A stretch of DNA of 17,352 bases from Okeania sp. (GCF_035285525.1 NZ_JAYKGW010000243.1:1-17352); one strand, 5' to 3'. Numbered from the stretch's first letter, positions 137-17,236 are shown. Numbers and translations: made by a program. The notes: generated from the letters alone by a model not told the origin.

Positions 137-982
137 CTACTCCTGTAAAAATAGTTTTCTACTTTGCTCCGTAGAACTCAATTTTTCTTCAATAATCTGC
201 CAATTTTCTTGTTCAATATCCTCAATAAACCTATTAATTTCCTCTCGAAAAGAATAGAGCGATCGCAACACCTCCAGACGATTATATTGGGCCATCATTC
301 GTCCTAACTCCGGATTACCACCTCCCACTCGGCTAGTATCACGGAAACCAGAACTAGCCAACTCTTGTGCTAACTTAACAACAGTAGGATGAGTTTCACT
401 CATACAGGCAGAAATCAAACTAGCACTGGCCATCACAGGCAAATGAGAAATCCAGGCAACAGCTCGATCATGTTCATAAGGGTTACAAAAGTAAACTTGA
501 CTCTGAAGCAAGCTAACTATTGCCTCAACTTTCTCCACAGACTCCAAAGGAGTATTTTCAGTAGGAGTCAATACATAAGGTCTATCCCTAAATAAACCCA
601 ACTGAGCCACCTCAATCCCACTTTCTGCCTTCCCCGCCATAGGATGTCCACCCACAAAATTCGGCCAAATTTGGGAAACACCCTCCACAATAGGTTTCTT
701 CACAGAACCCACATCAGTTAAAATTGCAGAGGGAGAAATAAAAGGAATAAGTTGTTCCAGAGTAGGAATAATAATAGATATGGGAGTACAGATAAATATT
801 AAATCAGCAATAGAGAGTAAAGATAATTCCAAACTAGCTTCATCAACAGCTCCCAGAGCGATCGCCTTTTGACAGGTTTGGTTTCGACGAGAAACTCCAA
901 AAACCTGATAACCTAAAGCTCTCAAATCCAATCCAATCGAGCCACCAATTAAACCTAATCCAACAATACCTATATTCACCAT
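137..982 (-). CDS. tyrA: Arogenate/prephenate dehydrogenase (TyrA family)
   Basis: 281-aa ORF. N-terminal Rossmann motif IGIVGLGLIGGS and the TyrA signature FVGGHPMAG are present, as is ...HDRAVAWISHLP. Size matches the monofunctional cyanobacterial arogenate dehydrogenase. Confidence 0.9.
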   Translation of the reverse strand: MVNIGIVGLGLIGGSIGLDLRALGYQVFGVSRRNQTCQKAIALGAVDEASLELSLLSIADLIFICTPISIIIPTLEQLIPFISPSAILTDVGSVKKPIVEGVSQIWPNFVGGHPMAGKAESGIEVAQLGLFRDRPYVLTPTENTPLESVEKVEAIVSLLQSQVYFCNPYEHDRAVAWISHLPVMASASLISACMSETHPTVVKLAQELASSGFRDTSRVGGGNPELGRMMAQYNRLEVLRSLYSFREEINRFIEDIEQENWQIIEEKLSSTEQSRKLFLQE

Positions 983-1018: not shown

Positions 1019-2578
1019 ATGATAATCGAAGAACTCCAAAAAAAATATGCTGCTGGTGAAAGAAATTTTACAGACCTCAATCTTTTTGAGGCCAACCTCA
1101 CTGGTATTAATCTCAGTGGCGCAAATCTTAGCGGAGTAAACCTTAGTGTTGCTAACCTAAGTGGTGCGAATTTAACAAATTCTAATCTTAGTAAAGCTAA
1201 ACTTAATATTGCTAAACTTAACGGAGCACATTTGAGTGGCACAAACTTAAATGGTGCTGATTTGAATGTAGCAAACCTAGTTTTAGTCAATTTGAAAAAA
1301 GCTCGATTAATTGGCGCTAAATTGATTAGAGCAGAATTAATTAGAGCAGAATTAAGTGAGGCAAATCTTGCTTTAGCAGATTTAAGTGGAGCAAGTTTAG
1401 TTGAAGCTACACTCCGAAAAGCCAATCTAAGTAATGCTAATTTAAAGGGAGCTAACTTGCGTTTTGCTTCTCTTACAGGATCTAATTTAATAGAAGCTAA
1501 CTTACAAGGAGCAGATCTGAGTGGTGCAGATTTGAGTGGAGTAAACCTCAGTGGTTCTGAGTTAAGACAAACTAATTTGAATGGTGCTAATTTGAATGGT
1601 TCTGATTTAAGTGGAGCTAACTTACGTTGGGCTGACTTAAGTGGTGCTCAACTGAAGTACGCTAATCTTAGTGATGCGAAACTAAGTGGTGCTAACTTAA
1701 GTAGAGGAGATTTGTTCCAAGCTAACCTTTTAAATACCAGTTTAGTTCATGCTAATTTATCGAGTACCTGTTTAATTGAAGTAGATTGGATTGGAGTAGA
1801 TTTAACCGGAGCAACTTTAACCGGAGCCAAAATCTTTGGAGCTTCTCGCTTGGGAATTAAAGCAGAGGCAGTAATCTGTAAGTGGCTTGATCTTAGTGCA
1901 AGTGGAGATAAAAGTCAAGTTTATTCTCTTAACTCAGAAACAATCAAAAATTTCTTTCACGAAAGCGTTCCTCAAGTAAATATTATTGTTGATACTTCTT
2001 TAGATAGTTTTAGTCATTATGCTCTAGCTACAACATATTATCAAATTAGTAAGTATTTACCAGAATTATCTCAACCCCCTTCCATAGAAATTAATTCTTG
2101 TAGAACAATCATTTCGTTTTCAATGGATAGTGATGAAAAGCTATTTTCTACTGCCTATATCGCTATTTTACCTTTTCTTGATGCTGCTAAAACTCAAGAG
2201 AATATTGTTAAAATTATGAAAATAGCTAATTCTCAAGACTTAAATTTTTTAACTCCTGTCATAGCTCAAATAATTCGGCAGTTCAGCACAGTATTAAATA
2301 CATCAATTAAACAAGTTAATCAAATTAATAAAAACCAAGTATTTCTGAAATCTTGTAACGGAATTAAGTTTTTCCAGACACCAACAAAAATAAGTATAAC
2401 TAATTCTAGTGGTCAAAAATTTAATATCTATTATCATCCTAAGTTTGGTAAACGAATAGTAAATAAAGACACTAAAAATAGTGAGGAAGAAACTATAATT
2501 AAAGTGCTTCAAACAGAACCATATTCTATTAGTACAATTTTTGACTTCATTAATGGCTTTTATCAACCACAAATTTAA
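1019..2578 (+). CDS. Pentapeptide-repeat protein, paralog 1, with uncharacterised C-terminal domain
   Basis: ORF 992-2578. The ATG at 1019 (MIIEELQKKYAAGERNF) matches the N-termini of the two paralogs better than the ATG at 992. About 51 consecutive A(D/N)LxX pentapeptides have L/F at every fifth residue without a register break (ORF aa ~26-280). A non-repeat domain alignable to paralogs 2 and 3 follows. Confidence 0.85.
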   Translation: MIIEELQKKYAAGERNFTDLNLFEANLTGINLSGANLSGVNLSVANLSGANLTNSNLSKAKLNIAKLNGAHLSGTNLNGADLNVANLVLVNLKKARLIGAKLIRAELIRAELSEANLALADLSGASLVEATLRKANLSNANLKGANLRFASLTGSNLIEANLQGADLSGADLSGVNLSGSELRQTNLNGANLNGSDLSGANLRWADLSGAQLKYANLSDAKLSGANLSRGDLFQANLLNTSLVHANLSSTCLIEVDWIGVDLTGATLTGAKIFGASRLGIKAEAVICKWLDLSASGDKSQVYSLNSETIKNFFHESVPQVNIIVDTSLDSFSHYALATTYYQISKYLPELSQPPSIEINSCRTIISFSMDSDEKLFSTAYIAILPFLDAAKTQENIVKIMKIANSQDLNFLTPVIAQIIRQFSTVLNTSIKQVNQINKNQVFLKSCNGIKFFQTPTKISITNSSGQKFNIYYHPKFGKRIVNKDTKNSEEETIIKVLQTEPYSISTIFDFINGFYQPQI

Positions 2579-2612
2579 TTTTTAGGGAGTAGGAAGTAGC
2601 TAGTATTGATAA

Positions 2613-2916
2613 TTAGGGTCTGCTGAAAAAGTCTGATGGTTAAGGTAGGGAGTAGGGAGTAGGGAGTAGGGAGTAAACCCACCCCTAACCTCTCCCAGGA
2701 GAGGAATTTAGGAGGAGTAGGAGTTATAGAGGAGTAGGGACTATGCAACGTCCGTACAGAATAATTGTCTCTTAATTATTCTGTTCTAGTTAGCATCAGA
2801 AGGCTAACTTTTTTAACCTTTCTGACCTAAAAGCTGATACTTTTTCTAGACAAACTAGACAAACAAGTTGCTGCTTTATCTGTCAATGTTTTCAGATTTC
2901 CATACGCCAGCTCTAA
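2613..2916. mobile_element. MITE-like element, family A, copy 1 (contains heptamer array)
   Basis: Left end TTAGGGTCTGCTGAAAAAGTCTGATGGT recurs at 16194 and, reverse-complemented, at 12287-12314. Right end CAGATTTCCATACGCCAGCTCTAA matches the right end of the next copy. No ORF. Confidence 0.6.
2646..2675. repeat. Heptamer tandem repeat TAGGGAG x4 (STRR-like)
   Basis: Four perfect units counted directly. A degenerate version, TAGGGAG TAGGAAG TAGCTAG, lies at 2583-2603. Confidence 0.9.
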
Positions 2917-3212
2917 TTAGGGTCTGCTGATTTATCGGGAACCGTAAAAGTCTTTTAGTAGCGGGGAGGAGCCAGAATCCAGCAATCCAGCAATCCAGCA
3001 ATCCAGAATCCTTATGGGAATGGGAATCATCAAAGAAGTAGCCAGAAGAATCTTCCCTTCATTTTCTAACCTTTTCTTGCTCAAAATCTGAGAATGTATG
3101 ATTTTTCGGGAACCGTAGCATTACCACCTAAAAGCTGGTACTTTGATTACTACCTAAAAAGGGTAAAATCTTTACCTGTCAAGACTTTGAGATTTCCATA
3201 CGCAAGCCCTAA
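2917..3212. mobile_element. MITE-like element, family A, copy 2 (abuts copy 1; contains octamer array)
   Basis: Starts TTAGGGTCTGCTGATTTATCGGGAACCGTAAAAGTCTTTTAG. The internal block GTAGCCAGAAGAATCTTCCCTTCATTTTCTAACCTTTTCTTGC aligns with 9021-9062. Ends GAGATTTCCATACGCAAGCCCTAA. Confidence 0.6.
2976..3011. repeat. Octamer tandem repeat AATCCAGC x4.5
   Basis: Counted directly inside MITE copy 2. Confidence 0.9.
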
Positions 3213-3220
3213 CTATTCCC

Positions 3221-3276
3221 TCCATACCTCCATACCTCCATACCTCCATACCTCCATACCTCCATACCTCCATACC
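3221..3276. repeat. Octamer tandem repeat TCCATACC x7
   Basis: Seven perfect units, bracketed by CTATTCCC on both sides (3213-3220 and 3276-3283). The array creates the spurious ORF 3094-3300. Confidence 0.95.
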
Positions 3277-3278
3277 TA

Positions 3279-3298
3279 TTCCCAGTTAAGTGTTCCCT
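3279..3298. repeat. Dispersed 20-mer TTCCCAGTTAAGTGTTCCCT, copy 1
   Basis: Perfect 20/20 match to 12261-12280. Ends 15 nt upstream of the paralog 2 ATG. Confidence 0.85.
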
Positions 3299-3313
3299 GA
3301 AAAAACTGAAAGT

Positions 3314-4867
3314 ATGAACCCAGAAGAAATACTTAAAAAATACGCAAAAGGAGAAAAAAACTTTACAGGTATTATTCTATGTGAAGTCAATCTTAGTAAA
3401 GTTAATCTCAATCAAATTAATTTAAGTCAAGCAGTATTAAATTTAACTAATCTCAGTGAAGCTAACCTAAATGGAGCCAACCTAAATGGAGCTAAACTAA
3501 ACATATCTAGACTTACGAAAACTGATCTGAGCGACGCTAAACTTAACGGTGCAAATCTCAACCTTACTAATCTAATTGAAGCTAATTTAAGTAACGCTGA
3601 ATTGATAGAAGCCAAACTAATTCGAGCAGAGTTAATTCGGGCAAATATGAGTAATGCTAATCTCAAAGGTGCTAATTTAGCAGAGGCAGATTTAAGAGAA
3701 GCTATGTTAAAACAAGCTAACTTAGAATTAGTAGACTTACATTCTGCTCATCTAAGAGGTTCTTGCTTACTAAATTCTAACTTAGAAAGAGCTAATTTAT
3801 ATAGAGCAAATCTTGGTAAAGCTGACTTGAGAGGAGCCAACTTTAGTAATGCTGAACTTAGACAAGCTAATCTTTCTCTTTCTAATTTGAGTAAAGCTAA
3901 TTTTAAAGGAGCTAATTTAACGGAAGCTGATTTAACAGGAGCTAATTTAACAGGAGCAAATCTTGATTCAGCTATACTTAATAGTGTCAATTTACATGGA
4001 GCAAATTTATATAATTCTAATTTATCTAATGCCGTTTTAATTAAAGCTGATTTAACTAAAAGTAATTTAATTCATGTTAGTTGTGAAGGAGCAGATTTAA
4101 CATCAGCTATTCTCACAGGTAGTAAACTTTATGGAGTATCAAGATTTAGAATAAATGCAGAAAATATTACTTGTAATTGGGTTGATATGAGTGAAAATGG
4201 TGATGGTAGTAAAATAATAAATTTGACTCCGGAAGAATCTCGACTTTTTTTTGATGCGAGTCAACCAATTGTTAAAGTTACTATTGGTTCACCTTTAAAT
4301 CCTGATGCTCATTTAGCCTTAGCTGCCATCTACCGTCAAATTTATAAACAGTATAATCTCTTAGGATTACCTCCTAATATCGAAGTTAATTATAAACAAA
4401 CTAAATTATCACTTCAAGTAGATAAAGATGAACAGTTATTTCCTACTGCTTATTTGATGATTTATCCCTTCAAAGTATCTACATTAACTCAAAATTATTT
4501 TTTAGAACTAATCAAACAAATTACCCAATTCTACTCTAGAACTTTAAATGTTAGAACATCAAATCGTTTTGCCAAGATTAGAATAAACCTTTATAAAATG
4601 AAAAGAATAATTGATGAACTAAATGCTAATAATACTCAACCTTCTCAAATACTAAACTTAAAATTTTTCAGTTCTCTGATAAGAATTAATATAGTTAACT
4701 CAATGGGAGAAGATTTTTGCCTGACAAATAGTCTAGATTATACCCAAGTAATTTCTAACTATTTAATCGAAAAAGGCATAAATGAAGAACACTTAGTTAA
4801 CTCTTTTGTAGATACTCAACAATTTTATAAAAGCCTAGTATCATTTGTTAAAAATTTTTCTGAATAA
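3314..4867 (+). CDS. Pentapeptide-repeat protein, paralog 2, with the same C-terminal domain
   Basis: The ORF track starts at a GTG at 3290 inside a dispersed repeat. The ATG at 3314 (MNPEEILKKYAKGEKNF) matches the paralog N-termini. About 50 uninterrupted pentapeptides are followed by the conserved junction GVSRFRINAENITCNWVDMSENGDGS and the C-terminal domain. Confidence 0.85.
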   Translation: MNPEEILKKYAKGEKNFTGIILCEVNLSKVNLNQINLSQAVLNLTNLSEANLNGANLNGAKLNISRLTKTDLSDAKLNGANLNLTNLIEANLSNAELIEAKLIRAELIRANMSNANLKGANLAEADLREAMLKQANLELVDLHSAHLRGSCLLNSNLERANLYRANLGKADLRGANFSNAELRQANLSLSNLSKANFKGANLTEADLTGANLTGANLDSAILNSVNLHGANLYNSNLSNAVLIKADLTKSNLIHVSCEGADLTSAILTGSKLYGVSRFRINAENITCNWVDMSENGDGSKIINLTPEESRLFFDASQPIVKVTIGSPLNPDAHLALAAIYRQIYKQYNLLGLPPNIEVNYKQTKLSLQVDKDEQLFPTAYLMIYPFKVSTLTQNYFLELIKQITQFYSRTLNVRTSNRFAKIRINLYKMKRIIDELNANNTQPSQILNLKFFSSLIRINIVNSMGEDFCLTNSLDYTQVISNYLIEKGINEEHLVNSFVDTQQFYKSLVSFVKNFSE

Positions 4868-4870
4868 CTG

Positions 4871-4898
4871 GAGAATTAAGAATTGAGAATTAAGAATT
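4871..4898. repeat. Heptamer tandem repeat RAGAATT x4
   Basis: GAGAATT AAGAATT GAGAATT AAGAATT, 3 nt downstream of the paralog 2 stop codon. Confidence 0.85.
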
Positions 4899-4975
4899 GG
4901 AGAGTGTACTAAAAGTATGATGAGAAAAGATTGACAGCACTTAAACTTCTGGATATAAAGTTTCTCACCTTTAGA

Positions 4976-5120
4976 TAGAGCTTGCTGATTAAATGTCAAA
5001 GTTTTTACAGATAATTCTTTTAGCCTTTTTAGGTGTTGAAAAAGTACCTAACTATTAACTGTTAACTAATTTTTCGGGAACCGTAAAAGCTGATAACTAA
5101 TAACTGATAGCTGATCAATG
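4976..5120. mobile_element. MITE-like element, family A, partial or rearranged copy
   Basis: TAGAGCTTGCTGATTAAATGTC...TTAGCCTTTTTAGGTGTTGAAAAAGTACCT is the reverse complement of the right arm seen at 9108-9174. It is followed by the TTTTCGGGAACCGTAAAAG core and heptamer repeats. The right boundary is uncertain. Confidence 0.45.
5090..5117. repeat. Degenerate heptamer repeat CTGATAA-like x4
   Basis: CTGATAA CTAATAA CTGATAG CTGATCA. A second short array, CTAACTA TTAACTG TTAACTA, lies at 5048-5068. Confidence 0.7.
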
Positions 5121-5189
5121 AAATTACCTTACTTCGGAAATTGGTGTACATCTAGCGTATATCTAGTAAACTTGACTACTTAATAACAA

Positions 5190-6704
5190 ATGTCAACAGA
5201 AATATTAAAAAGATACCAATTAGTTAAAAAATATACACAAGGAACAAGAAATTTTGCAGGCATTAATTTGACAGAAGTCAACCTGAGTCGGATGAACTTA
5301 AGCAAAACTAATCTTATTCATGCTACTTTATTTGTCTGTAATCTCAGTGGCGCTAATCTCAGTGAATCTAACCTAACTAGAGCTAATCTCAATATAGCCC
5401 GCCTAAGTGGTGCTAATCTGAAAAAAGCTATATTAAATAAAGCAACTCTCAATGTGGCCAATCTAGTCCAAGCTAATTTAACAGAAGCTCAATTAGTAGA
5501 AGCTACCCTAATTAGAGGAGAATTAGTCAGAACGGAACTTAGTTTAGCTAATCTTAGTGGAGCTAATCTCAGTAATGCTGATATGAGAGAAGCAAATATT
5601 ACAGAAGCTAACTTAATTCAAACTAATTTAAGTAATGTAAATCTGAGATTTGCTCAAGGAAAAAGAAGTAATTTAGAAAAAGCTGACCTTCATAATGCGG
5701 ATTTGACAAAAGCCGATCTAGAAGGAGCGAATTTTACTGATGCTGAATTAAGACAAACTCATTTCAGTATGGCTAATCTTAAGAATGCCACATTTCATGG
5801 GGCTAATCTCAGGTGGGCTAATCTTAATGGAGCTGACTTAACTGATGCAGACCTTAGTAATGTTAAATTAAGTGGAGCTAATCTTCGGGGAGCTAATTTG
5901 ACCAATACAAAATTAACTAATGCTAGTCTAGTTCATGCTGATTTAACTGAAGCTAATTTAGTCCGAACTGATTTAGTAGGAGTAGATTTATCAGGAGCTA
6001 TTTTAACTGGAGCAAAACTTTATGAAGTTCCTAGATTAAATATTAAAGCTGAAAATATTGTTTGTGAATGGATTGATATTAGTCCTAATGGAGATCGTAG
6101 TCAAGTTTATCACTTTAAATCACCAGCAGAATCTCAGAGATTTTTTCACCAAAAACCCCCCATAGTTCAAATAATTGTTGATTCAAATTTAGACCAAAAA
6201 GTTAATGTAGCTCTGGCTACAACTTACTATCATCTGGCTCAGGATTATGATTTTATGAAACGTCCTCCTAGTATTGAAGTTCAGTACCAAAAAACTATTT
6301 TGAGTTTTATAGTAGACAATGATCAACTTTTATTTATACTCGCATTTATAGCAATCAATCCTTTTGCTGATGGGAAAAATGCTCAAGTTAATATCATAAA
6401 AATTCTCGAAAATTCCCCTTTACAAAAAATCAATACCAAAATATCAGAATTAGAAATTGATATGCAGCAAGTCATTTCCAAAAATCAGAAAATAAAAAAA
6501 ATTGTTGAATCTTTTTCACACAAAATTACTTTTTTTGCAGCCCCTACTCAGTTAATTTTAAATAATTCTAGCGGTAAGAGTTTAGTAGTAAGTAGCAATC
6601 CTAAGTTTGGAAAAAAAATCTCTAAAAATATAGAACAAAAATTCTCTTTACCCTCTGAAAATCAAATAGCTAATTTTATTGATAGCTTTTATCACTTTGG
6701 TTAA
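5190..6704 (+). CDS. Pentapeptide-repeat protein, paralog 3, with the same C-terminal domain
   Basis: 504-aa ORF with the same architecture. The junction reads EVPRLNIKAENIVCEWIDISPNGDRS. The C-terminus (NPKFGKKI, FIDSFYH) is closest to paralog 1 (HPKFGKRI, FINGFYQ). The stop lies 5 nt before the next gene. Confidence 0.85.
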   Translation: MSTEILKRYQLVKKYTQGTRNFAGINLTEVNLSRMNLSKTNLIHATLFVCNLSGANLSESNLTRANLNIARLSGANLKKAILNKATLNVANLVQANLTEAQLVEATLIRGELVRTELSLANLSGANLSNADMREANITEANLIQTNLSNVNLRFAQGKRSNLEKADLHNADLTKADLEGANFTDAELRQTHFSMANLKNATFHGANLRWANLNGADLTDADLSNVKLSGANLRGANLTNTKLTNASLVHADLTEANLVRTDLVGVDLSGAILTGAKLYEVPRLNIKAENIVCEWIDISPNGDRSQVYHFKSPAESQRFFHQKPPIVQIIVDSNLDQKVNVALATTYYHLAQDYDFMKRPPSIEVQYQKTILSFIVDNDQLLFILAFIAINPFADGKNAQVNIIKILENSPLQKINTKISELEIDMQQVISKNQKIKKIVESFSHKITFFAAPTQLILNNSSGKSLVVSSNPKFGKKISKNIEQKFSLPSENQIANFIDSFYHFG

Positions 6705-6709
6705 AATCT

Positions 6710-8221
6710 GTGATTGAAGTAGAAGTCCATCAATCCCTACTAAATTTTTTACAATCGCAAAATCAACCTTACTGGCCTCATAATTTAACAATGGCACGGT
6801 TAGTGGCAAGAGCTTTGCGACTGGGACGTAGTGCTTTAATTCAAACAGCTTCTCCACCAGGTAGCCATAATCAAGAATATCAATTGAGTTATCTACTACC
6901 AATCTTAATGTGGCCTCAAAAAACCATATTAGTTACTCCTCAACCAGTACAAGAACATTTACTTACTGTGGAAATTCCCAGGTTGCTAGCCAACCAATCT
7001 CAGATTAGTCCATTACTTTCTCAAAAAGCAATCCAAACTTATCCTCTACAAGACCCTAATTTTGATGGACTATTACTGATAACTCCTGAAGCTTGGTTAG
7101 CTAAACAATGGCAGGATCAAGATTTTTCTCAAGGTATTCCCACAATTATTGACTGGGCAGACAATCTCGAAACTTGGGCACAAAATTATTTAACTGCTAG
7201 CTTTTTACCTACTGGCTGGAATCAACTAATGGAAGTTTATCCGGAGCAAGCTGACTTGATTCGTGAAACTAGGATAAATTTAACGCGATCGCTTTTCCAA
7301 CATCCAGCTAATCCCTACAACTGCTATTTAATTGAACAAGATGAGGAACAAATTTTACAAAATCTCGTCTATAATAGTTTATCTTTACCTCTAGAGAAAT
7401 ATGATTTTTGGTTTCAGTGGCAAAGCAGTGGACAATTAAAGTGGGCAGAAATTCATCGTCAGAGAGGCTCATTTTCTTTGTACTGTACTCCTTATGATTT
7501 ATCTGAAGCTCTCAAAAATATTTGGACTAAACAACCAGTCGTAATTATTGGAGGAGCATTAGATTTAAAAAGGAAAGCTGATAGTTATAGACAGATGGTG
7601 GGACTAGGAGAGATAACTTGTGTTAAATTTTCTCCTGATCGTCGCCATGAGATGATTCAATTATATTTGCCTAATGGTTTACCTCTGCCAAATACACCTC
7701 AATTTCAAACAGTATTAACTACAGAAATTAGAAGTTTATTGCATATTAGTTCTAATGGTATTAATGGATTAATAGTAATTATTATCGGAGATGTACCACT
7801 GAAAACTCAAGTGGGTGCTGCTTTGGCTTCTGAATTTGGTTCGAGAGTTCAGGTAGAAACAGTTTCTGCTGAAGAAAATACTATTTTAATTACTGGTTGG
7901 GAATTTTGGCAAGAACATCAAAGAGAACTCCCAGCACCTAAATTATTAATAATTACTACATTACCTCTTCCATCTTTAGAACATCCGTTAGTATCTGGAC
8001 GAGTAAATTATTATAAGCAAAGGGGTTTAGATTGGTTTAGACTATACCTGTTACCAAAAGCATTACAAGAGTTGCAACGTGCTATTGCCTCTGCGCGAGA
8101 GTCTCAAGGTGTGGTTGCTGTGTTAGATAATCGTGTGATTTATCGTAGTTATGGTAAACAAATTTTAGCAGCTCTTAGCCCCTTTGCCAAAATTAATTCC
8201 TTAGATACTATTTGGTTATAA
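6710..8221 (+). CDS. DinG/Rad3-like helicase-family protein with degenerate ATPase motifs
   Basis: 503-aa ORF with a GTG start 5 nt after the paralog 3 stop. It is collinear with DinG-type motifs: ALIQTASPPGSHNQEYQLSYLLP where the P-loop is expected, LLLITPEAWL, IIDWADNLE where IIDEAHNLE is expected, LPLPSLEHPL, QRAIASARESQGVVAVLDNRV and YG..IL..L at the C-terminus. There is no GK[ST] anywhere in the protein. Confidence 0.7.
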   Translation: MIEVEVHQSLLNFLQSQNQPYWPHNLTMARLVARALRLGRSALIQTASPPGSHNQEYQLSYLLPILMWPQKTILVTPQPVQEHLLTVEIPRLLANQSQISPLLSQKAIQTYPLQDPNFDGLLLITPEAWLAKQWQDQDFSQGIPTIIDWADNLETWAQNYLTASFLPTGWNQLMEVYPEQADLIRETRINLTRSLFQHPANPYNCYLIEQDEEQILQNLVYNSLSLPLEKYDFWFQWQSSGQLKWAEIHRQRGSFSLYCTPYDLSEALKNIWTKQPVVIIGGALDLKRKADSYRQMVGLGEITCVKFSPDRRHEMIQLYLPNGLPLPNTPQFQTVLTTEIRSLLHISSNGINGLIVIIIGDVPLKTQVGAALASEFGSRVQVETVSAEENTILITGWEFWQEHQRELPAPKLLIITTLPLPSLEHPLVSGRVNYYKQRGLDWFRLYLLPKALQELQRAIASARESQGVVAVLDNRVIYRSYGKQILAALSPFAKINSLDTIWL

Positions 8222-8272
8222 AAGAGGGAACAGGGAACAGAGAGACAAAGAAGCCCGGAGACGGGGAGACAA

Positions 8273-8296
8273 AGAAACCGGGTTTCTGGGTTGGCT
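8273..8296. repeat. 24-nt repeat containing the palindrome GAAACCGGGTTTC, copy 1
   Basis: AGAAACCGGGTTTCTGGGTTGGCT. Recurs at 8454-8477 (23/24) and, as AGAAACCAGGTTTCTGGGT, at 13708-13726. Confidence 0.8.
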
Positions 8297-8448: not shown

Positions 8449-8453
8449 ATTCA

Positions 8454-8477
8454 AGAAACCGGGTTTCTGGGTGGGCT
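8454..8477. repeat. 24-nt repeat containing the palindrome GAAACCGGGTTTC, copy 2
   Basis: AGAAACCGGGTTTCTGGGTGGGCT, 181 nt downstream of copy 1 and 5 nt after the family B element end. Confidence 0.8.
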
Positions 8478-8625: not shown

Positions 8626-8838
8626 ATGGGTGAAGCAAAGCGTCGAAAAGAAGCATTGGGAGAAGAATACGGTAAAGAAACACGGTTTATTTCTTGGCTA
8701 CCAATCACTAAAAGTCAAAGTGAACAATTTATGAAGTTGACTACAACTGGTGCATGGACTGGTATTGTATTTCTTATTCTGGCATGGTCAACAGTTAGAT
8801 TTATCGGTCCTGCTTTTGGATGGTGGCAAGTTGAATAA
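8626..8838 (+). CDS. Small conserved cyanobacterial membrane protein (DUF2839-like)
   Basis: 70-aa ORF starting MGEAKRRKEALGEEYG, with one hydrophobic helix (GAWTGIVFLILAWSTVRFIGPAFGWW). The family name is recalled from memory and not verified. Confidence 0.65.
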   Translation: MGEAKRRKEALGEEYGKETRFISWLPITKSQSEQFMKLTTTGAWTGIVFLILAWSTVRFIGPAFGWWQVE

Positions 8839-8929
8839 CTTTTTGTGAAACATTTAGCTATAAGCTATTAGTTATTAACTCCAGAAATGTTTTTCAGGAG
8901 GAATTAGTCTGGAAGAACTAATATATAAA

Positions 8930-9174
8930 TAGGGCTTGTTGAATAAGTCTTTTAGTTAAGAATAGGAGTCAGAATCCAAAATCGGTAAATCCAGAAATCA
9001 GGGGAACTATAGAGGAGGTAGTCAGAATAATTCTCCCTTGAATTTCTGCCCTTTTCTTGCCAAAAATGCACTCTTTTTTGACCATAAATATCTGAAAAAT
9101 AGGTACTTTTTTCAGACATAAAAAGGCTAAAAATTTATATATCAATTTTTTTATATTTAATCAGCAAACCCTAA
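8930..9174. mobile_element. MITE-like element, family A, full copy
   Basis: TAGGGCTTGTTGAATAAGTCTTTTAG ... TTATATTTAATCAGCAAACCCTAA form terminal inverted repeats. The internal sequence is collinear with 2917-3212. Confidence 0.65.
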
Positions 9175-9259
9175 ATAAAAATATCGTCAGTTAACCTTAG
9201 TAAGTTATTACATTTAAAATCTTAATGCTTACCTTTTTGTTTACTAAAATTAGAAAAAA

Positions 9260-9365: not shown

Positions 9366-9624
9366 TAGAGTTTGGGTATGGAAGTTCTTTTTGCGGAGGT
9401 AGGGAGTAGGAAGTATTGAAGAGTAAGGATAAGCAGGAGGTTACATAGGAAATATTTGGAAAAATAGTTGCTTCATTTTTCTGCCATAGTTAACGTAAAA
9501 TGCTAGGTTTTTGATTTTTCGGGAACCGTACCTTATCTGCCTAAAAATTTGAACTTTTTCCGACCAGAAAAAGGGACTTACCTTTATCTATAAAATAATT
9601 TTATATTTAATCAGCAAGCCCTAG
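9366..9624. mobile_element. MITE-like element, family A, full copy
   Basis: Starts TAGAGTTTGGGTATGGAAGT, the reverse complement of the ...TTCCATACGCAAGCCCTAA type end. It contains GGTAGGGAGTAGGAAGTA and TTTTCGGGAACCGTA, and ends TTATATTTAATCAGCAAGCCCTAG. Confidence 0.6.
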
Positions 9625-10009
9625 TTAAGTATAGATAACTTGTGACTTATATTGATGATTCATTATTTATATAACATTGTATTTTGAATTTATCAAACAA
9701 TGCCACAGCAAAGCTTAATATTTTTATGCCTGAAAATACAAGGATTTGACTGAATGTTTTACTTGATACTTTACTCAATAAGCCGACCGGAAAAAGGTAC
9801 TTACCTTTTATCTATAAAATAATTTTAGATTTAATCAGCAAACTCTAGTTAAGTCTAGATAACTTCTGACTTATAGTGATGATTAATTATTTATATAACT
9901 TCACATTTTGAATTTCTCAAACAATGATTTCAGAAGCAAAGCTTAATAGTTTTATGCCTGAAACTACAGATATTTGACTGAATGTTGTACTTGATACTTT
10001 ACTCAATAA
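9560..10009. repeat. Tandem direct duplication, 2 units of about 223 bp
   Basis: Unit 1 (9560-9781) and unit 2 (9783-10009) align end to end with scattered substitutions and small indels. Each unit holds the last ~65 bp of a family A MITE plus ~160 bp of otherwise unique AT-rich sequence ending TTGACTGAATGTTNTACTTGATACTTTACTCAATAA. Confidence 0.9.
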
Positions 10010-10170
10010 TCCTATCAGTTAACCTAAAATACCTAGTGTTGAAGGCTAGTTGAGGGATATGCGCGAAAAAATAACAGGGTATATACTATATTCAAAAGTT
10101 AGACACCAAGATTTCCAAAAAACTTAACAAAGTGTAAAATTTCTGAGGTGTATTGAATAGGAGGATAATC

Positions 10171-10530
10171 GTGTTTCAGAGACTTGCAGAACAACATCGT
10201 CAATTTGTCAAGGACTTAGTAATGAATTTACAAGCTCTAGCGATTGTGCTAGAGAATAGAGGATACTTAGCCTCTTGTTACACTTGTGGAGGTCAAATGA
10301 ATAGTGCCTCATTTATGGTTAGTCTGGGAGAAAATCATCTGATTCGTTTTCTGGTATCAGATTATGGGATAACATGGACAGAGATGCGAGATGACCGTGA
10401 ATTAATGAAATTAGAAGGAGCTGAAGCAATTAGTCAATTACAAGAATTAGCTAATTTAGTGAAAAATCAGATTCAGTCTTGTCCTCATAAAATTAGGGAG
10501 GAGGATCTTAGTCTAAATAATGTAACATAG
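10171..10530 (+). CDS. Conserved cyanobacterial hypothetical protein (DUF1815-like)
   Basis: The ORF track starts at a TTG at 10153. An in-frame GTG at 10171 lies 5 nt after a perfect AGGAGG (10160-10165), giving MFQRLAEQHRQFVKDLVMNLQALAIVLENRGYLASCYTCGG... The family name is from memory. Confidence 0.6.
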   Translation: MFQRLAEQHRQFVKDLVMNLQALAIVLENRGYLASCYTCGGQMNSASFMVSLGENHLIRFLVSDYGITWTEMRDDRELMKLEGAEAISQLQELANLVKNQIQSCPHKIREEDLSLNNVT

Positions 10531-11221: not shown

Positions 11222-12100
11222 ATGAGTCTTCTAGAATCTCAATGGCAGCATTTTTTTGTAGATACCAATAATATTCGCCTACATTGTGTTACTCAAGGTG
11301 AGGGAGAATTAGTTATACTCCTGCATGGTTTCCCTGAATTTTGGTATTCTTGGCGGTATCAAATGCCAGCTTTAGCACGTCATTTTCGGGTTGTAGTCCC
11401 AGACTTACGAGGTTACAATGATTCTGAAAAACCAGATAATGGTTATGACCTAGATACTTTAGCAGCAGACATTCGAGGGTTAATCGAACGCTTGGGTTAT
11501 GTTAAAGCACATATAGTTGGCCATGATTTGGGAGGGGCGATCGCCTGGCATCTAGCCCAAAAATTTCCTCAATGTTTGAACCGTCTAGCAATTTTGAATG
11601 CAGCTCATCCCCAAAAACTAATTCAAGAAGTGGCCGTAAATTTAGATCAACTACGCAGAAGTTGGTATATATTAGCCTTTCAAGTACCTGGAGTTCCAGA
11701 ATGGCTAATTCAGCAAAACTTAAAAGAATTTATCAAAGAAATCTTTCAAGGACAAGCCATTCGCAAAAGTGCCTTTACTGCGGAAATTACTCAAATTTAT
11801 CAAGCAGCTTTAGAGAAACCAGGAGCTTTAGTAGCTGCAATTAATCATTATCGTCAATTTCTGTGGCCTCAAAACTGGCTCAGAAATTTCAATCCTAAAC
11901 CACAACAAGTTACAGCACCAACTTTAATATTATGGGGTAAAGAAGATTATTTTTTAAGCCAAAAACTTACAGAAGGTTTAGACAAATTAATAGCAGCTCC
12001 TTTCTGGTTAAAAGTTATTCCTGACTGTGGTCATTGGATCCAACAAGAAGTACCCTATACAGTAAATAGGGAACTATTGGATTTTTTTGGGAAAAATTAA
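11222..12100 (+). CDS. Alpha/beta-fold hydrolase, epoxide-hydrolase-like
   Basis: HGFPEFWYSWRYQMPALA is nearly identical to the soluble epoxide hydrolase HGFPESWYSWRYQIPALA block. The nucleophile motif GHDLGG, acid residue in WGKEDYF, catalytic His in DCGHWIQQE and cap motif INHYRQF are all present. Confidence 0.9.
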   Translation: MSLLESQWQHFFVDTNNIRLHCVTQGEGELVILLHGFPEFWYSWRYQMPALARHFRVVVPDLRGYNDSEKPDNGYDLDTLAADIRGLIERLGYVKAHIVGHDLGGAIAWHLAQKFPQCLNRLAILNAAHPQKLIQEVAVNLDQLRRSWYILAFQVPGVPEWLIQQNLKEFIKEIFQGQAIRKSAFTAEITQIYQAALEKPGALVAAINHYRQFLWPQNWLRNFNPKPQQVTAPTLILWGKEDYFLSQKLTEGLDKLIAAPFWLKVIPDCGHWIQQEVPYTVNRELLDFFGKN

Positions 12101-12101
12101 T

Positions 12102-12314
12102 TTGGATTTGCTGAATAAATATAAAATTATTGAAAACTCAAAGTTTGAGCTTTTTTAAGTGCTAAAAAAGTACCTAGTTTTTGATTTTTGTCGTTTCAAA
12201 ATGGTAGAGTTTTGTTACTTACAATTAGAAAATTTGTCCGTAGCAGATATTCTAATACTGTTCCCAGTTAAGTGTTCCCTACCTTCACCATCAGACTTTT
12301 TCAGCAAACCCTAA
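12102..12314. mobile_element. MITE-like element, family A, full copy starting 1 nt after the hydrolase stop codon
   Basis: TTGGATTTGCTGAATAAAT ... CAGACTTTTTCAGCAAACCCTAA form terminal inverted repeats. It contains the 20-mer TTCCCAGTTAAGTGTTCCCT. Confidence 0.6.
12261..12280. repeat. Dispersed 20-mer TTCCCAGTTAAGTGTTCCCT, copy 2
   Basis: Perfect match to 3279-3298, here inside the family A MITE at 12102-12314. Confidence 0.85.
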
Positions 12315-12330
12315 TTTTATTTTTAGTAAG

Positions 12331-12400
12331 TAAGGTTTACTGATTAAATATAAGAGTATTCATAGATCGAGATTTTCGTCTTTTTAGGGTCTGAAAAAGT
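12331..12400. repeat. Fragments of family A termini
   Basis: TAAGGTTTACTGATTAAATATAAG and TTAGGGTCTGAAAAAGTGG both resemble family A left ends. No matching right ends were found. Confidence 0.35.
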
Positions 12401-12486
12401 GGAAGTTTGTAGAGGGTTGGGAGACCAAACCCCTACGGTTGGAAACCTAAAACGGAACTATGACCCAACTAAAATATAGCTAAAAT

Positions 12487-13643: not shown

Positions 13644-13743
13644 AGGACTTACGCAAATAAATCCGGTTTCTACAATAAACCCTGGTTTTGAATAATAAAC
13701 GTTCAGGAGAAACCAGGTTTCTGGGTTCGCCTGCGTAATTCCT
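13644..13743. mobile_element. Small inverted-repeat element, family B, 100-bp copy in the recA/degT-like divergent spacer
   Basis: The 12-nt termini AGGACTTACGCA and TGCGTAATTCCT match 11/12 as inverted repeats. The interior has several CCGGTTT/AAACCAGG hairpin-forming segments. Confidence 0.5.
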
Positions 13744-13913: not shown

Positions 13914-15044
13914 ATGTTAAAAAATATTCCATTTGTTGACTTGAAACTCCAACATCAACCACTCAAAGCTGAACTAGAAAATTCGATTCAGGAAGTATTA
14001 GAAAGAGGAGATTTTATACTTGGTCAAGCAGTAGAAAAACTTGAGTCTTCATTCCCTACAGTTTGCGGGGTAAAAAATGGGGTTGGAGTTGGTTGTGGCA
14101 CAGATGCTATAGCTCTTGGACTTCAAGCTTGTGGTATTGGCGCCGGAGATGAAGTAATTTTACCAGCTAATACATTTGTTGCTACTTTAATAGGTGTACT
14201 TCAAGCTGGTGCTACCCCTGTGCTAGTAGACTGTAATGTTGAAACTGCCCTAATTGATTTAGAAGCTGCTCAAAAAGCTGTTACATCTAAAACCAAAGTA
14301 ATATTGCCAGTACATCTTTATGGTCAAATGGTATCTCCTAGTGAACTAAAAGACTTTGCTGAAGCTAATAACTTAATTATATTTGAAGATGCAGCTCAGG
14401 CTCATTTAGCCGAAAGAGAAGGATATTGTGCTGGGAGTATTGGAACTGCTGCTGCATTTAGTTTCTATCCCAGTAAAAATTTAGGTAGTTTTGGTGATGG
14501 AGGAATGGTAGTTACTAGAGACTCAGAGATAGCCAAAAAAATACGAACCCTCCGTAATTATGGCGCACCTCGTAAATATGTCCATGAGATTCCTGGTACT
14601 AACAGTAGATTAGATAGTATACAGGCAGCCATACTAAATGTCAAGCTTCCTTACCTAAAAGATTGGAATAGCGATCGCAACCAAGCAGCTCAAAAATACG
14701 ATATCCTTCTCAGTCCCATGAAAGAGAAAGGTATTATCCCTATCAAAAATTTGAGTGGTACTGGGCATATTTATCATTTATATGTGATTCGAGTCACTGA
14801 CAAATCTCCAATTAACCGAGACACCTTGAAGGAGAAATTAGGGATGGCAGGAATTTCTACTGGTATTCATTATCCGATACCTTGTCATCTGCAACCAGCT
14901 TATCAAAATTTAGGTTATAAGCAGGGTGATTTTCCTAATAGTGAAAGTCTGAGTCAAGAGATTTTATCTTTACCTATTTATCCTGTAATTACTGAAGAAC
15001 AAATTCATCAGGTTGCCGAAACAATTAGTCAAATTATTATGTAA
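13914..15044 (+). CDS. DegT/DnrJ/EryC1/StrS-family PLP-dependent sugar aminotransferase
   Basis: 376-aa ORF starting IPFVDLKLQH. It has the GDEVILPANTFVAT block and the PLP-lysine motif FSFYPSKNLGSFGDGG, then NYG, GTNSRLDSIQAAIL and GIHYPIPCHLQPAY. Confidence 0.9.
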   Translation: MLKNIPFVDLKLQHQPLKAELENSIQEVLERGDFILGQAVEKLESSFPTVCGVKNGVGVGCGTDAIALGLQACGIGAGDEVILPANTFVATLIGVLQAGATPVLVDCNVETALIDLEAAQKAVTSKTKVILPVHLYGQMVSPSELKDFAEANNLIIFEDAAQAHLAEREGYCAGSIGTAAAFSFYPSKNLGSFGDGGMVVTRDSEIAKKIRTLRNYGAPRKYVHEIPGTNSRLDSIQAAILNVKLPYLKDWNSDRNQAAQKYDILLSPMKEKGIIPIKNLSGTGHIYHLYVIRVTDKSPINRDTLKEKLGMAGISTGIHYPIPCHLQPAYQNLGYKQGDFPNSESLSQEILSLPIYPVITEEQIHQVAETISQIIM

Positions 15045-15296
15045 GTAAAAAGCGATTAGCTATTAGCTAAAAATGCTTAGTAAATCATATTAGCTAGTCT
15101 CCTGGGAAGGAGCTGGGCTAATAGCTATTGCTTTTAGTTTATAATAAAAGCTTTTTCATTCTCAAATGAAAAATTACTACAAAAACCAGTTTTTAGGTCT
15201 ATATTTCTTTAAATATTTTCGTTAAGCTTGAAATTTTTATTGCTGTTTTCGTAGCATTTTTCTTTCTTAACTTCTTACTTCTTACTTAAAAAAAAT

Positions 15297-16193
15297 ATGC
15301 AAACTCGTCAAAAAATTCCTATTGCTATTGAGGAAAACTTACTAACAATAGCCATTACTGCCTTAATATTTTTGATGTATATTCCATTAATAATCTATTG
15401 GTATGATGGCTGGATTAATAAAAGTATCAGTATAGAACATGAATATTTTAGTCATGGAGCAATAGGCTTACCATTTGCTGGCTATATTGTTTGGAATAAT
15501 CGACAAAAATGGCAAAACTTACCTAATACTTCTCATCCTGTAGGAGGAGTATTATTAGGAATTGCAGGAGTTTGGTATCTCAGCGATATTCCGGACTTGA
15601 TCGACCTATCTTTTCCCCTAATGTTAACAGGAATTTGCCTTTGGTTCAAAGGAATACCAGGTTTCAAATTAATGGGTATGGCATTACTATTGATTTGGTT
15701 AGCAAGTCCTAATAATATTCCCTACTTAATTGAACCTTATATCCTACCTTTACAGAAATTTATTGCTGCAATTATCGGGTTTATTTTGAATCAATTTAAT
15801 ATGAATATTGATGTAAATGGAATATATTTAGATTTAGATTTAGAAAGAAGAGTTATTGAAATCGCACCCCATTGTGCAGGGTTGAAAATGTTGTTTACCA
15901 GTCTATATGTTTCCCTAGTTTTACTTAATTGGACTGGTGCTATAGCTAGTCGCGGTAAAACTATTTGCCTGCTCTTTAGTGCCGTGCTAATTAATGTTAG
16001 TGGCAATATTATCAGAAACGCTTTACTAACAATTTTTTATGGTACAGGTCAGGATGAAGCTTTTCATTGGTTCCATGAATCATGGGGTGGTGATATGTAT
16101 TCTATCTGTATGTTAAGTTTATTATTTCCGATTATGAATTTGATAGATGATTATTTCACAAATTCAGTCGATTTTCCAAATCAACCTGAATAA
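15297..16193 (+). CDS. crtA: Cyanoexosortase A (exosortase/EpsH-family polytopic membrane transpeptidase)
   Basis: 298-aa multi-pass membrane ORF carrying the exosortase catalytic signature: Cys in IEIAPHCAGLKML, Arg in GNIIRNALL, and His in FHWFHESWGG. It is followed by the characteristic associated gene. The subfamily A assignment is from memory of the locus layout. Confidence 0.75.
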   Translation: MQTRQKIPIAIEENLLTIAITALIFLMYIPLIIYWYDGWINKSISIEHEYFSHGAIGLPFAGYIVWNNRQKWQNLPNTSHPVGGVLLGIAGVWYLSDIPDLIDLSFPLMLTGICLWFKGIPGFKLMGMALLLIWLASPNNIPYLIEPYILPLQKFIAAIIGFILNQFNMNIDVNGIYLDLDLERRVIEIAPHCAGLKMLFTSLYVSLVLLNWTGAIASRGKTICLLFSAVLINVSGNIIRNALLTIFYGTGQDEAFHWFHESWGGDMYSICMLSLLFPIMNLIDDYFTNSVDFPNQPE

Positions 16194-16405
16194 TTAGGGC
16201 TGGCTGAAAAAGTCTGTTGGTGAGCTTAGGCAATGGGGAATAGGCAATAGTTGCAGCTATTAATTTTTATAAATTTTTCCAAGTTTTGTGAGAAAAAATC
16301 CAGAATTTTCAAGATTAATTTAATAGTTTTTTGACACTTTTTGTTACCATGAAAAGCCTTTAATCTTTGTCTTTTAATGCTTTTAGATTTAATCAGTAAG
16401 CAATG
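16194..16405. mobile_element. MITE-like element, family A, copy inserted between the exosortase gene and its partner gene
   Basis: Starts at the base after the TAA stop: TTAGGGCTGGCTGAAAAAGTCTGTTGGTGAG. Ends TTTTAGATTTAATCAGTAAGCAATG, a degenerate right terminus. Confidence 0.55.
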
Positions 16406-16447
16406 TAATTTCTGCTTAAATAGTTATGGATAAAGGAAGACAGAAAT

Positions 16448-17236
16448 ATGGGAGAGGAATTTGGAAAATCAACTTTTAATAACCGGACTTGGTATAAAAT
16501 TCAAGAGAATTGTGTTATGGTTAATAGCTTAAAAAGATTGCACAGATATAAACTTTCACAAGTAGTATTAGTATTGTTTCTGCTAATTATTTTAGTAGTG
16601 GGAACTGTACCTGGTTACATAACCGGAAAATGGTCTTGGAAAAATACAGCAAAAATTACTAATCTCAAAGACTTAAAACAAATCAAAGAAGAGGGATTAA
16701 CTATTTCTGATTTGCCAACAATATCTCATGAACAATTGTTAATTGCTGACCATAAGTGGTTGGAGCAAAAAGTTAAAAATAATGAGCAATCTATAGTCTT
16801 ATTACTATTAACTCCAAACGGACCAAAAGACAAGCCCGAAGTAGAATGGATGGATATAAATGGGTTCTATCGTTGGAAAACAGATTCCGAAAAAAGAGTT
16901 AAATTTACTGTAGAAATACCAAAAGATGGCAATGGAATTACAAACCGAAAAAAGCAATCTTCTAATGTAGAGGCTAAATTTTTTCGAGCCTGGACAAATA
17001 AACAAACTTTTGCAGTAATGCAGTGGTATGCTTGGCCTGGAGGAGGAAGTCCAGAAACTGGTGATTGGTTTTGGCAGGATAGATTAGCTATGATATCTAA
17101 AAAGCGTGTGTCTTGGGTAGCAGTTAATATATTATTACCTGTTGAACCTCTAGGAAATATTGATCCTTATCTACCACAAATCAAATCTATCGCGCAAAAA
17201 ACTCAAGCATCATTATGGATAATTAATAATGAATAG
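16448..17236 (+). CDS. Cyanoexosortase A system-associated protein
   Basis: 262-aa ORF directly downstream of the exosortase gene with a single N-terminal TM segment (VVLVLFLLIILVVGTVPGY). The ATG at 16448 has AAGGAAG 8 nt upstream. An alternative ATG at 16517 (MVNSLKRLHRYK) would give a shorter N-terminus. Confidence 0.65.
   Translation: MGEEFGKSTFNNRTWYKIQENCVMVNSLKRLHRYKLSQVVLVLFLLIILVVGTVPGYITGKWSWKNTAKITNLKDLKQIKEEGLTISDLPTISHEQLLIADHKWLEQKVKNNEQSIVLLLLTPNGPKDKPEVEWMDINGFYRWKTDSEKRVKFTVEIPKDGNGITNRKKQSSNVEAKFFRAWTNKQTFAVMQWYAWPGGGSPETGDWFWQDRLAMISKKRVSWVAVNILLPVEPLGNIDPYLPQIKSIAQKTQASLWIINNE

Follow-up and report, generated by a model that had tools for sequence, protein, structure and literature searches.

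What brings three long, mutually diverged pentapeptide-repeat genes together in tandem, hard against a gene for a DinG-like protein that lacks its ATPase motifs, is the question raised by a complete 17,352-nucleotide (nt) contig of Okeania sp., referred to here as the window (its protein accessions at NCBI run from MEB3343529 onward). A preliminary description of this DNA saw in the arrangement a dedicated module, in which DNA-mimic-like rods linked to a catalytically dead helicase scaffold act on a nucleic-acid enzyme in a protective, regulatory or defence-related capacity, with the caveat that the genes might simply form a conserved cyanobacterial housekeeping neighbourhood. It is the caveat that describes what the evidence shows. 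The best explanation, to which we give about even credence, is that the locus is a vertically inherited core cyanobacterial neighbourhood holding an uncharacterised two-domain protein family, and that it is neither a mobile nor a defence module. At present it should be regarded as a conserved neighbourhood and not as a new system whose activity is defined.

Three paralogs and an ancient triplication

Four open reading frames (ORFs) on the plus strand make up the locus, at 1019-2578 (copy 1; 519 amino acids (aa), NCBI MEB3343529), 3314-4867 (copy 2; 517 aa), 5190-6704 (copy 3; 504 aa) and 6710-8221 (the DinG-like gene; 503 aa). That the first three are same-strand paralogs of identical architecture, as had been proposed, is borne out by the ORFs, by Pfam and by alignment from end to end; copy 2 is further identified by its own clade in the tree described below. 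Each protein consists of a pentapeptide-repeat domain and a non-repeat C-terminal domain (CTD) of about 240 aa. In copy 1 an N-terminal cap and about 52 pentapeptides extend to approximately position 1825 and the CTD is encoded at 1826-2575, and in copy 3 the two domains occupy 5190-5996 and 5997-6701. The paralogs are 42-48% identical overall and 31-41% identical in the CTD, with sizeable insertions and deletions confined to a variable helical stretch of that domain.

The divergence between the copies is old. Nucleotide identity is 56-59%, and synonymous divergence (dS) stands at 0.9-1.6, near saturation. The block LIRAELIRA, said in the preliminary description to be encoded differently in each gene, is indeed specified by different codons in copies 1 and 2, the only two in which it is identical; copy 3 reads LIRGELVRT. 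In a neighbour-joining tree of 51 proteins, the copies fall into three clades by position in the array, each with members from Okeania/Dapis and from Microcoleus/Oscillatoria/Tychonema, and because these position-matched clades extend across genera, the triplication is older than Okeania, Dapis, Microcoleus, Oscillatoria and Tychonema. The copy-1 clade also contains the single copy of Trichodesmium, and the single copies of Coleofasciculaceae and Lyngbya adjoin it; most single-copy lineages branch beside this clade or more basally, and one single copy (L045) falls inside the copy-3 clade.

The array has also been maintained. Measured against Dapis and a more distant metagenome ortholog, the ratio of nonsynonymous to synonymous divergence (dN/dS) is 0.15-0.20 for copy 1, 0.19-0.24 for copy 2 and 0.22-0.24 for copy 3, with the DinG-like gene giving 0.17-0.19 and tyrA 0.15. 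Every copy is under purifying selection, and the suggestion of an old, maintained triplication therefore holds, both on these ratios (0.15-0.24 per copy) and on the position-orthologous clades. Copy number is nonetheless labile. Several Trichodesmium genomes retain copy 1 only; in Trichodesmium MAG_R02 (L011, 9511-9693) the last 60 codons of copy 3 are left, abutting the DinG-like gene, in Trichodesmium MAG_R04 (L012, 2942-3187) the first 87 codons of copy 1 are left between tyrA and the DinG-like gene, and one Microcoleus genome (L018, 8818-9095) holds an N-terminal remnant of copy 3. The DinG-like gene is intact in every locus with decayed copies, to which artefacts in the assembly of metagenome-assembled genomes (MAGs) may contribute.

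A conserved neighbourhood anchored by tyrA

Surveying the neighbourhood from the DinG-like gene, in 88 loci and the window (89 in all), reveals a common backbone consisting of tyrA in reverse orientation, none to three repeat-plus-CTD genes, the DinG-like gene, DUF2839, DUF1815, an alpha/beta hydrolase gene and recA, again in reverse orientation. The backbone is present, whole or in part, in Okeania, Dapis, Trichodesmium, Microcoleus, Tychonema, Oscillatoria, Lyngbya, Limnoraphis, Coleofasciculaceae and several Leptolyngbya-type genomes. In 52 of the 89 loci, fewer than 400 nt separate the end of a repeat-plus-CTD gene from the DinG-like gene downstream; in 13 the distance is greater (491-4,382 nt). 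In six others, including Oculatella, Elainella, an Oculatellaceae genome and Trichodesmium MAG_R04, tyrA directly abuts the DinG-like gene without a complete repeat gene; eight have neither tyrA nor a repeat gene within at least 2.5 kb upstream, and ten are uninformative. The entire cyanobacterial block, running from tyrA by way of three repeat genes and the DinG-like gene as far as recA, is also present on a contig that bears the label 'Actinomycetota bacterium MAG69' (L017, JBLNEP010000128.1) and is probably mis-binned.

In the window, copy 3 stops with TAA at 6702-6704, five nucleotides follow (AATCT, 6705-6709, plus strand), and the DinG-like gene opens with GTG at 6710, a start supported by the aligned orthologs, all of which begin with M or V followed by IEVEVH or a close variant. 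The 5-nt junction and the GTG-initiated ORF of 503 aa are thus as first described. The tight coupling to copy 3 also recurs, with a gap of -4 or +5 nt from the last repeat gene to the DinG-like start in 10 loci of the Okeania/Dapis clade and of 22 nt in 26 Microcoleus/Tychonema loci; the gap is 35-41 nt in three loci and 86-391 nt in 13, which are mostly single-copy.

The family was also sampled from the CTD, in 78 metagenome loci scanned with a six-sequence CTD alignment. Of the 60 loci informative on the upstream side, 58 have tyrA there as the divergent neighbour. On the downstream side, the DinG-like gene adjoins the family in only 30 of 67 informative loci; it is 1.7-2.2 kb away in two and absent from 35, of which 32 are single-copy for the repeat-plus-CTD gene. 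Co-localisation of the repeat and DinG-like genes, which the preliminary description had asked to be looked for in other cyanobacteria, therefore recurs in related genomes and is absent from loci of the Nostocales type. In 35 loci without the DinG-like gene, a DUF1517 gene follows the repeat-plus-CTD gene at -34 to +43 nt, succeeded by a Gly/Ser-rich ORF of about 300 aa (L109-L166; for example L166 8731-9414, L126 and L114). Twelve such loci also have, about 1.7 kb downstream and on the opposite strand, a gene for DAHP synthase with a ferredoxin-like regulatory domain, so that the family is flanked there by two genes of aromatic amino-acid biosynthesis, tyrA and DAHP synthase. Exact protein matches place four of the loci lacking the DinG-like gene in the Nostocales, namely in Nostoc desertorum, Mojavia, Scytonematopsis and Cyanomargarita; the cluster of the Nostoc desertorum protein also includes a Nostoc punctiforme protein, and a single-copy ortholog appears to be present in that species. 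The divergent members P0207 and P0208 (410 and 437 aa) lie head-to-head with tyrA as well, with no DinG-like gene nearby. At two loci with short divergent members, a large CHAT-TPR gene is found on the far side of tyrA (L089 101-4655, L090 1844-4297), together in L089 with a NACHT-type gene; both are families of the conflict-system type and are unrelated to the context of the window.

In the window itself, tyrA (137-982, minus strand) encodes a prephenate/arogenate dehydrogenase (NCBIfam NF005650, 417 bits against a cutoff of 290; Pfam PDH_N and PDH_C) and is arranged head-to-head with copy 1, the two separated by a divergent intergenic region of 36 nt (983-1018, read from the sequence with the NCBI-annotated start). 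Across 97 loci, a rough regex-based estimate puts fewer than 50 nt between the tyrA start codon and that of the first repeat gene in about 60. With start codons as close as those of tyrA and copy 1, each promoter would have to overlap the other gene.

A HetL-like repeat domain

Pfam Pentapeptide (PF00805) covers the N-terminal ~270 aa of all three copies (E 1e-64 to 1e-71) in seven to nine aligned stretches per protein, and the eight or more tandem A(D/N)LXX-type pentapeptides that mark the superfamily are present. A hydrophobic residue occupies 51-52 of the 55 in-phase positions across residues 1-275 of each copy, which therefore points to about 52 pentapeptides in a single unbroken register. 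At four pentapeptides per coil (PMC8145042), the repeat domain would comprise about 13 coils, and homology to solved repeat proteins (HetL 3DU1, E 1e-25) predicts that it folds as a quadrilateral beta-helix that is right-handed.

The nearest solved relatives of this domain are HetL, whose match extends from the N-terminal cap over about 230 residues, and constructs designed from HetL; matches in the PDB to Qnr, MfpA and AlbG are weaker (1e-12 to 1e-6 for the three, 1e-12 to 1e-7 for Qnr and MfpA). Similarly, the NCBIfam HetL model NF047416 ranks first or second for all three copies, with 161, 203 and 238 bits. These scores lie under its 260-bit cutoff, and the proteins carry an extra ~240-aa domain as compared to the single-domain architecture of HetL, so they are not HetL equivalogs. 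The Qnr model returns 80-86 bits (cutoff 240) and the MfpA model 65-75 bits (cutoff 360), and models of the Qnr/MfpA/AlbG type as a whole score 58-86 bits against cutoffs of 240-500. Membership of the NCBIfam Alr5209 family was considered and rejected, because the cutoff is passed only by alignment of the 113-position model to four or five separate stretches, which amounts to generic repeat similarity. Net charges of the repeat domains are -1, 0 and +3 (pI 6.1-9.0); as a proxy that takes in bulk charge only, these values do not describe a strongly electronegative, DNA-like surface. MfpA-type function depends on just such a surface (PMC8145042), and the near-neutral domains therefore provide a weak argument against MfpA-type DNA mimicry. 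A DNA-mimic role for the rods is accordingly disfavoured, the repeat domain being HetL-like rather than Qnr- or MfpA-like.

A C-terminal domain without recognisable relatives

The CTD is an unannotated domain without a recognisable structural relative in the PDB, BFVD or Pfam. Pfam gave no match to it, and at E values up to 1 just scattered single-member noise; a sequence-profile search of the PDB gave no match either. The AlphaFold2 model of the copy 3 domain is confidently predicted (pLDDT 86.9, pTM 0.83) and alpha/beta overall, comprising a beta-alpha-beta-beta-alpha core and, besides it, a long hairpin of helices, a beta-hairpin and a terminal helix. Foldseek with this model found nothing significant in the PDB (best E 0.014, TM ~0.2), and nothing at E below 1e-3 in the PDB and BFVD together, where TM reached about 0.28 or less. 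In an alignment of 26 sequences, conserved motifs include CxWxDxSxxGDxS, FFxxxPxV, PPxI...RTxLTF and LFxxAYxAxLPF, as well as FFQAPTQxxLxNSxxQxLxxYxxPxFGKR and LPxxxxxxxFxxGF.

The family is small. Word-indexed protein searches with the CTD, as a single sequence or as a profile, returned almost nothing and missed the window paralogs, and an exhaustive profile search of 1.84 billion representative proteins was used instead, together with the locus scans. It yielded 80 representatives at 50% identity, the full-length matches being about 490-545 aa with the CTD beginning at residue ~230-275, and the others shorter or fragmentary. Stand-alone proteins of about 120 aa that match the end of the CTD were rejected as candidate members; they look like fragments, and the one examined lies on a 944-nt contig with its frame open to the edge.

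A conserved pseudo-helicase

The AlphaFold2 model of the DinG-like protein (pLDDT 87.5) has two RecA-like domains with DinG/XPD topology. Over the whole chain, its best Foldseek match is Staphylococcus aureus DinG (8ZEF, E 4e-19, TMq 0.72), followed by Escherichia coli DinG, CasDinG and XPD, with E values from 4e-19 to 1e-12 and TMq of 0.5-0.72. By sequence, known families match the C-terminal half only, namely Helicase_C_2, YoaA and the PADLOC model typeIV_DinG, the last aligning to residues 213-498 (E 2.7e-42). A profile search of PDB sequences barely reached E. coli DinG, and the NCBIfam models score 87 bits for YoaA (cutoff 680) and 46-48 bits for DinG (cutoffs 598-789), or 35-87 bits overall against 548-794. 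Profile and fold comparisons, proposed as the check that might assign both the CTD and this protein to established families, thus assign the latter to the DinG/XPD fold and the former to no established family.

The catalytic motifs are missing, as the preliminary description had observed for the window, which has no P-loop and DWAD for DEAH, and the same is found in the orthologs. None of 55 orthologs, the window protein being one of them, has GK[ST] at the P-loop position, where the segment after strand beta-1 reads IQTGxPxxxxxRYRLSYL; one of the 55 has a chance GKT elsewhere together with a DExx-type match. At motif II, D[GW][VA]D replaces DEAH, and the four-cysteine Fe-S cluster is absent from the 55 sequences, which have just three partly conserved cysteine columns (window residues 205, 259 and 304). 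A motif VI-like block, QRAxxxxRxxQGxxAxxDxR, is kept. The loss of ATPase motifs is therefore family-wide, and the protein is best described, on its aligned motifs, as a conserved pseudo-helicase. It belongs to a large and highly conserved family of more than 2,000 homolog clusters at 90% identity, for which a collection of one genome per species gave at least 575 confirmed matching stretches, and it is widespread in cyanobacteria. Among the matches listed beyond the close Okeania/Trichodesmium group, identity to the window protein is ~53-63%, and between distant cyanobacterial lineages it is about 53-60%. That a dead helicase is conserved so strongly implies that it has an important role other than catalysis.

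What the locus may be

A reading of the locus as a conserved neighbourhood suggests the following history. A two-domain family, combining a HetL-like beta-helix with the CTD and so far found only in filamentous cyanobacteria, would have been anchored ancestrally head-to-head with tyrA. The gene would have triplicated early in an Oscillatoriales-type lineage, such that the array came to occupy the gap between tyrA and the DinG-like gene, and copy 3 would then have become operonic with the DinG-like gene and probably translationally coupled to it. The repeat-plus-CTD proteins may be non-enzymatic binding scaffolds in which the rigid beta-helix presents a protein-docking surface, by analogy to HetL, which acts through binding the protein HetR (PMC7476756). 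The CTD may serve as an oligomerisation module or as one that binds a partner or ligand, and the three diverged copies may be subfunctionalised or assemble as hetero-oligomers. Co-expression of copy 3 and the pseudo-helicase would be an order-specific arrangement and not an obligate two-part machine.

Several points weigh against this account. The paralog tree was built by simple neighbour joining, without support values, and Microcoleus predominates in the locus samples, which lack phylogenetic independence. The gap of 22 nt or less before the DinG-like gene, in 36 loci from two Oscillatoriales families, exceeds what plain synteny would lead one to expect and could mean a physical partnership. 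The protein-docking role is suggested by the analogy to HetL, and a literature search turned up no paper on either family, nor functional data for these genes.

One alternative to the favoured account is a partnership of repeat protein and DinG-like protein, in which DNA-mimic rods join a DinG-like scaffold devoid of catalytic activity in a module dedicated to binding or regulating a nucleic-acid enzyme. Copy 3 is separated from the DinG-like gene by only -4 to +41 nt in 39 loci of Okeania/Dapis, Microcoleus/Tychonema and the Limnoraphis type; a protein that keeps the full DinG/XPD fold and the motif VI-like arginine block while its ATPase motifs are gone fits a binding scaffold; and recA lies within the same conserved block. 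Against a dedicated module, the two families often occur apart. The DinG-like gene is widespread and often found alone, without an adjoining repeat gene in Oculatella, Elainella and others; of 67 informative loci of the repeat-plus-CTD family, 35, for the most part of the Nostocales type, lack the DinG-like gene, and the near-constant partner of the family is tyrA; and in Trichodesmium and one Microcoleus genome copy 3 has been cut to a 60-codon stub, or the array lost, with the DinG-like gene intact. The rods themselves are near neutral in charge and far under the cutoffs of the Qnr and MfpA models. Such a module is conceivable for copy 3 in the Oscillatoriales and cannot be the general logic of the family; we regard it as unlikely, and retain it at that level on account of the conserved coupling between copy 3 and the DinG-like gene. 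A more specific proposal, that copy 3 and the ATPase-dead protein form a stoichiometric complex with the rod docked on or in the nucleic-acid channel of the pseudo-helicase, and that the other copies and the unlinked Nostocales ortholog use the CTD for partners such as TyrA or DUF1517, is less probable still. Such a complex, if real, would regulate cyanobacterial DNA metabolism without catalysis, in a way not described before, and would be encoded near recA.

The constancy of tyrA raises another possibility, that the repeat-plus-CTD proteins are tied to TyrA or to aromatic amino-acid metabolism, for instance through a CTD that senses Tyr, Phe or arogenate or that binds TyrA, with a bidirectional promoter region shared between the genes. 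This fits tyrA as the sole near-constant neighbour, in 58 of 60 loci, where the gene is invariably divergent and in many cases within 50 nt, and the DAHP synthase gene some 1.7 kb downstream in 12 Nostocales-type loci; the beta-alpha-beta-beta-alpha core of the CTD has, among its weak Foldseek matches, ACT and aspartate-kinase regulatory domains. The Foldseek matches are insignificant, however (best E 0.014, TM ~0.2, probability 0.1-0.5), and no ACT profile matches the CTD at E values up to 1. A very short divergent spacer itself resists rearrangement, so that adjacency to tyrA may be neutral, and a single tyrA faces anywhere from none to three repeat genes. A metabolic tie of this kind seems to us improbable. 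Far more remote is the idea that the locus is an anti-phage or anti-plasmid defence, perhaps akin to CRISPR type IV-A, which employs the helicase CasDinG. The PADLOC typeIV_DinG match and the CasDinG structures among the top fold matches speak for it, but the ATPase motifs are missing from all but one of the 55 orthologs, the exception being the chance matches noted above; the window contains no CRISPR-type spaced repeat array, and the ORFs covered, by scan or by synteny, include no cas family. Across many genera the order of genes is fixed and of housekeeping character, and the paralog tree groups by position, not by genome. PADLOC has no match for the repeat proteins, and tblastn gave no match when 72,556 plasmids were searched with the DinG-like protein and the CTD, and 50,697 phages with the CTD only. 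Membership in type IV-A CRISPR or another defence system was rejected on the lack of cas or array association in the window, the absent ATPase motifs and the housekeeping context, and a mobile element or defence island on the fixed gene order, the position-wise tree and the lack of plasmid or phage matches. The defence role entertained in the preliminary description is thus disfavoured.

The significance of the conserved neighbourhood lies in what it groups together. Pentapeptide-repeat proteins are very abundant in cyanobacteria, and a function is known for almost none of them (PMC8145042). Here a coherent subfamily is defined, with a long HetL-like beta-helix, a confidently modelled CTD and a history that leads from a single tyrA-linked copy to a triplication, and with either the DinG-like gene or DUF1517 as a tightly coupled partner downstream.

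Other features of the window

Base composition of the window is unremarkable, and the flanking genes are housekeeping genes. Seven ORFs were scanned directly and the rest read by synteny; they are housekeeping or DUF genes. The DUF2839 gene (8626-8838, plus strand, 70 aa) is named from its annotation and is the 3' neighbour of the DinG-like gene in most loci; the DUF1815 gene (10153-10530, plus strand; PF08844, E 2.4e-54, and synteny) is a further backbone member, given for context only. Past recA, at 13914-17236, are an aminotransferase ORF of the DegT/DnrJ/EryC1 type, one that occupies the place of an exosortase (EpsH family) gene and one of 262 aa, the first two assignments being taken from the matching genes of the syntenic Dapis locus; the region, which looks cyanoexosortase-type, has the same synteny in Dapis and Trichodesmium. 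The window was scanned for Rfam families and tRNAs without a match. Promoter- and terminator-like matches are no commoner in the window than in shuffled sequence and are therefore uninformative on transcription units; a terminator-like hairpin at 2788-2809 was set aside as a consensus match only, of a kind rarer here than in shuffled sequence.

The spacers between the repeat genes are themselves rich in repeats. That between copies 1 and 2 (2579-3313, 735 nt) contains dispersed intergenic repeats and, about 30 nt upstream of the copy 2 start, a perfect tandem of roughly eight copies of the 8-nt unit CCTCCATA at 3211-3285, the length of which could vary by strain; that between copies 2 and 3 (4868-5189, 322 nt) holds a dispersed repeat at 4970-5063. 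The latter belongs to families of 40-80-nt intergenic repeats found in both orientations, at 2609-2669, 4970-5063, 8925-9067, 9095-9180, 12097-12418 and 16190-16250, with, for example, an inverted pair that is 95% complementary (2611-2651 and 12276-12316). These families resemble miniature inverted-repeat transposable elements or repetitive extragenic palindromic elements, and occupy other intergenic regions as well as the spacers. Upstream of DUF1815, in a 1.3-kb non-coding stretch of low GC content, lies a tandem pair of an element of about 200 nt (9583-9784 and 9807-10012; 90-91% identical, spacing 224-228 nt), each with a similar small antisense ORF starting MSKVSS. A 25-nt element with a short palindrome (AAGAAACCGGGTTTCTGGGT) occurs downstream of the DinG-like gene at 8272-8296 and 8453-8477 and upstream of recA at 13707-13731, and could be a hairpin or terminator-like repeat.

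Comparison with known systems

HetL (All3740 of Nostoc PCC 7120, 3DU1) is the best solved relative of the repeat domain and is likewise cyanobacterial, but it consists of a single domain of 10 coils, a 257-residue chain in 3DU1, whereas the window proteins would combine about 13 coils with a further domain of ~240 aa. The genomic context of the window family, moreover, is tyrA, and the family is also found in cyanobacteria that do not form heterocysts. With Qnr, MfpA and AlbG, the DNA-mimic pentapeptide-repeat proteins that protect topoisomerases and that gave rise to the DNA-mimic idea in the preliminary description, the window proteins have the repeat fold class in common; they differ in that solved Qnr and MfpA chains are just ~185-220 residues, and in that their own repeat domains are near neutral. 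MfpA dimerises via C-terminal helices (PMC8145042), in the place of which the window proteins have a 240-aa domain. SopA and PipB2 are multi-domain proteins in which a repeat beta-helix is fused to a non-repeat domain (PMC8145042), as in the window proteins; they are secreted effectors with known catalytic or localisation domains, in contrast to a CTD without a relative in Pfam, the PDB or BFVD.

The DinG-like protein resembles the superfamily 2 Fe-S helicases DinG, YoaA and XPD, and CasDinG, in whole-protein fold, in the sequence of its C-terminal half and in its motif VI-like block, and differs from DinG and XPD in lacking Walker A, DEAH and the four-cysteine Fe-S cluster, and in being just ~500 aa long. 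Pentapeptide-repeat proteins and DinG-family proteins are thus both known kinds. What is new at this locus is the combination of a pentapeptide-repeat domain with a relative-less CTD, the strict anchoring of the family to tyrA together with its ancient triplication, and the recognition of a cyanobacteria-wide family of ATPase-dead 'helicases'.

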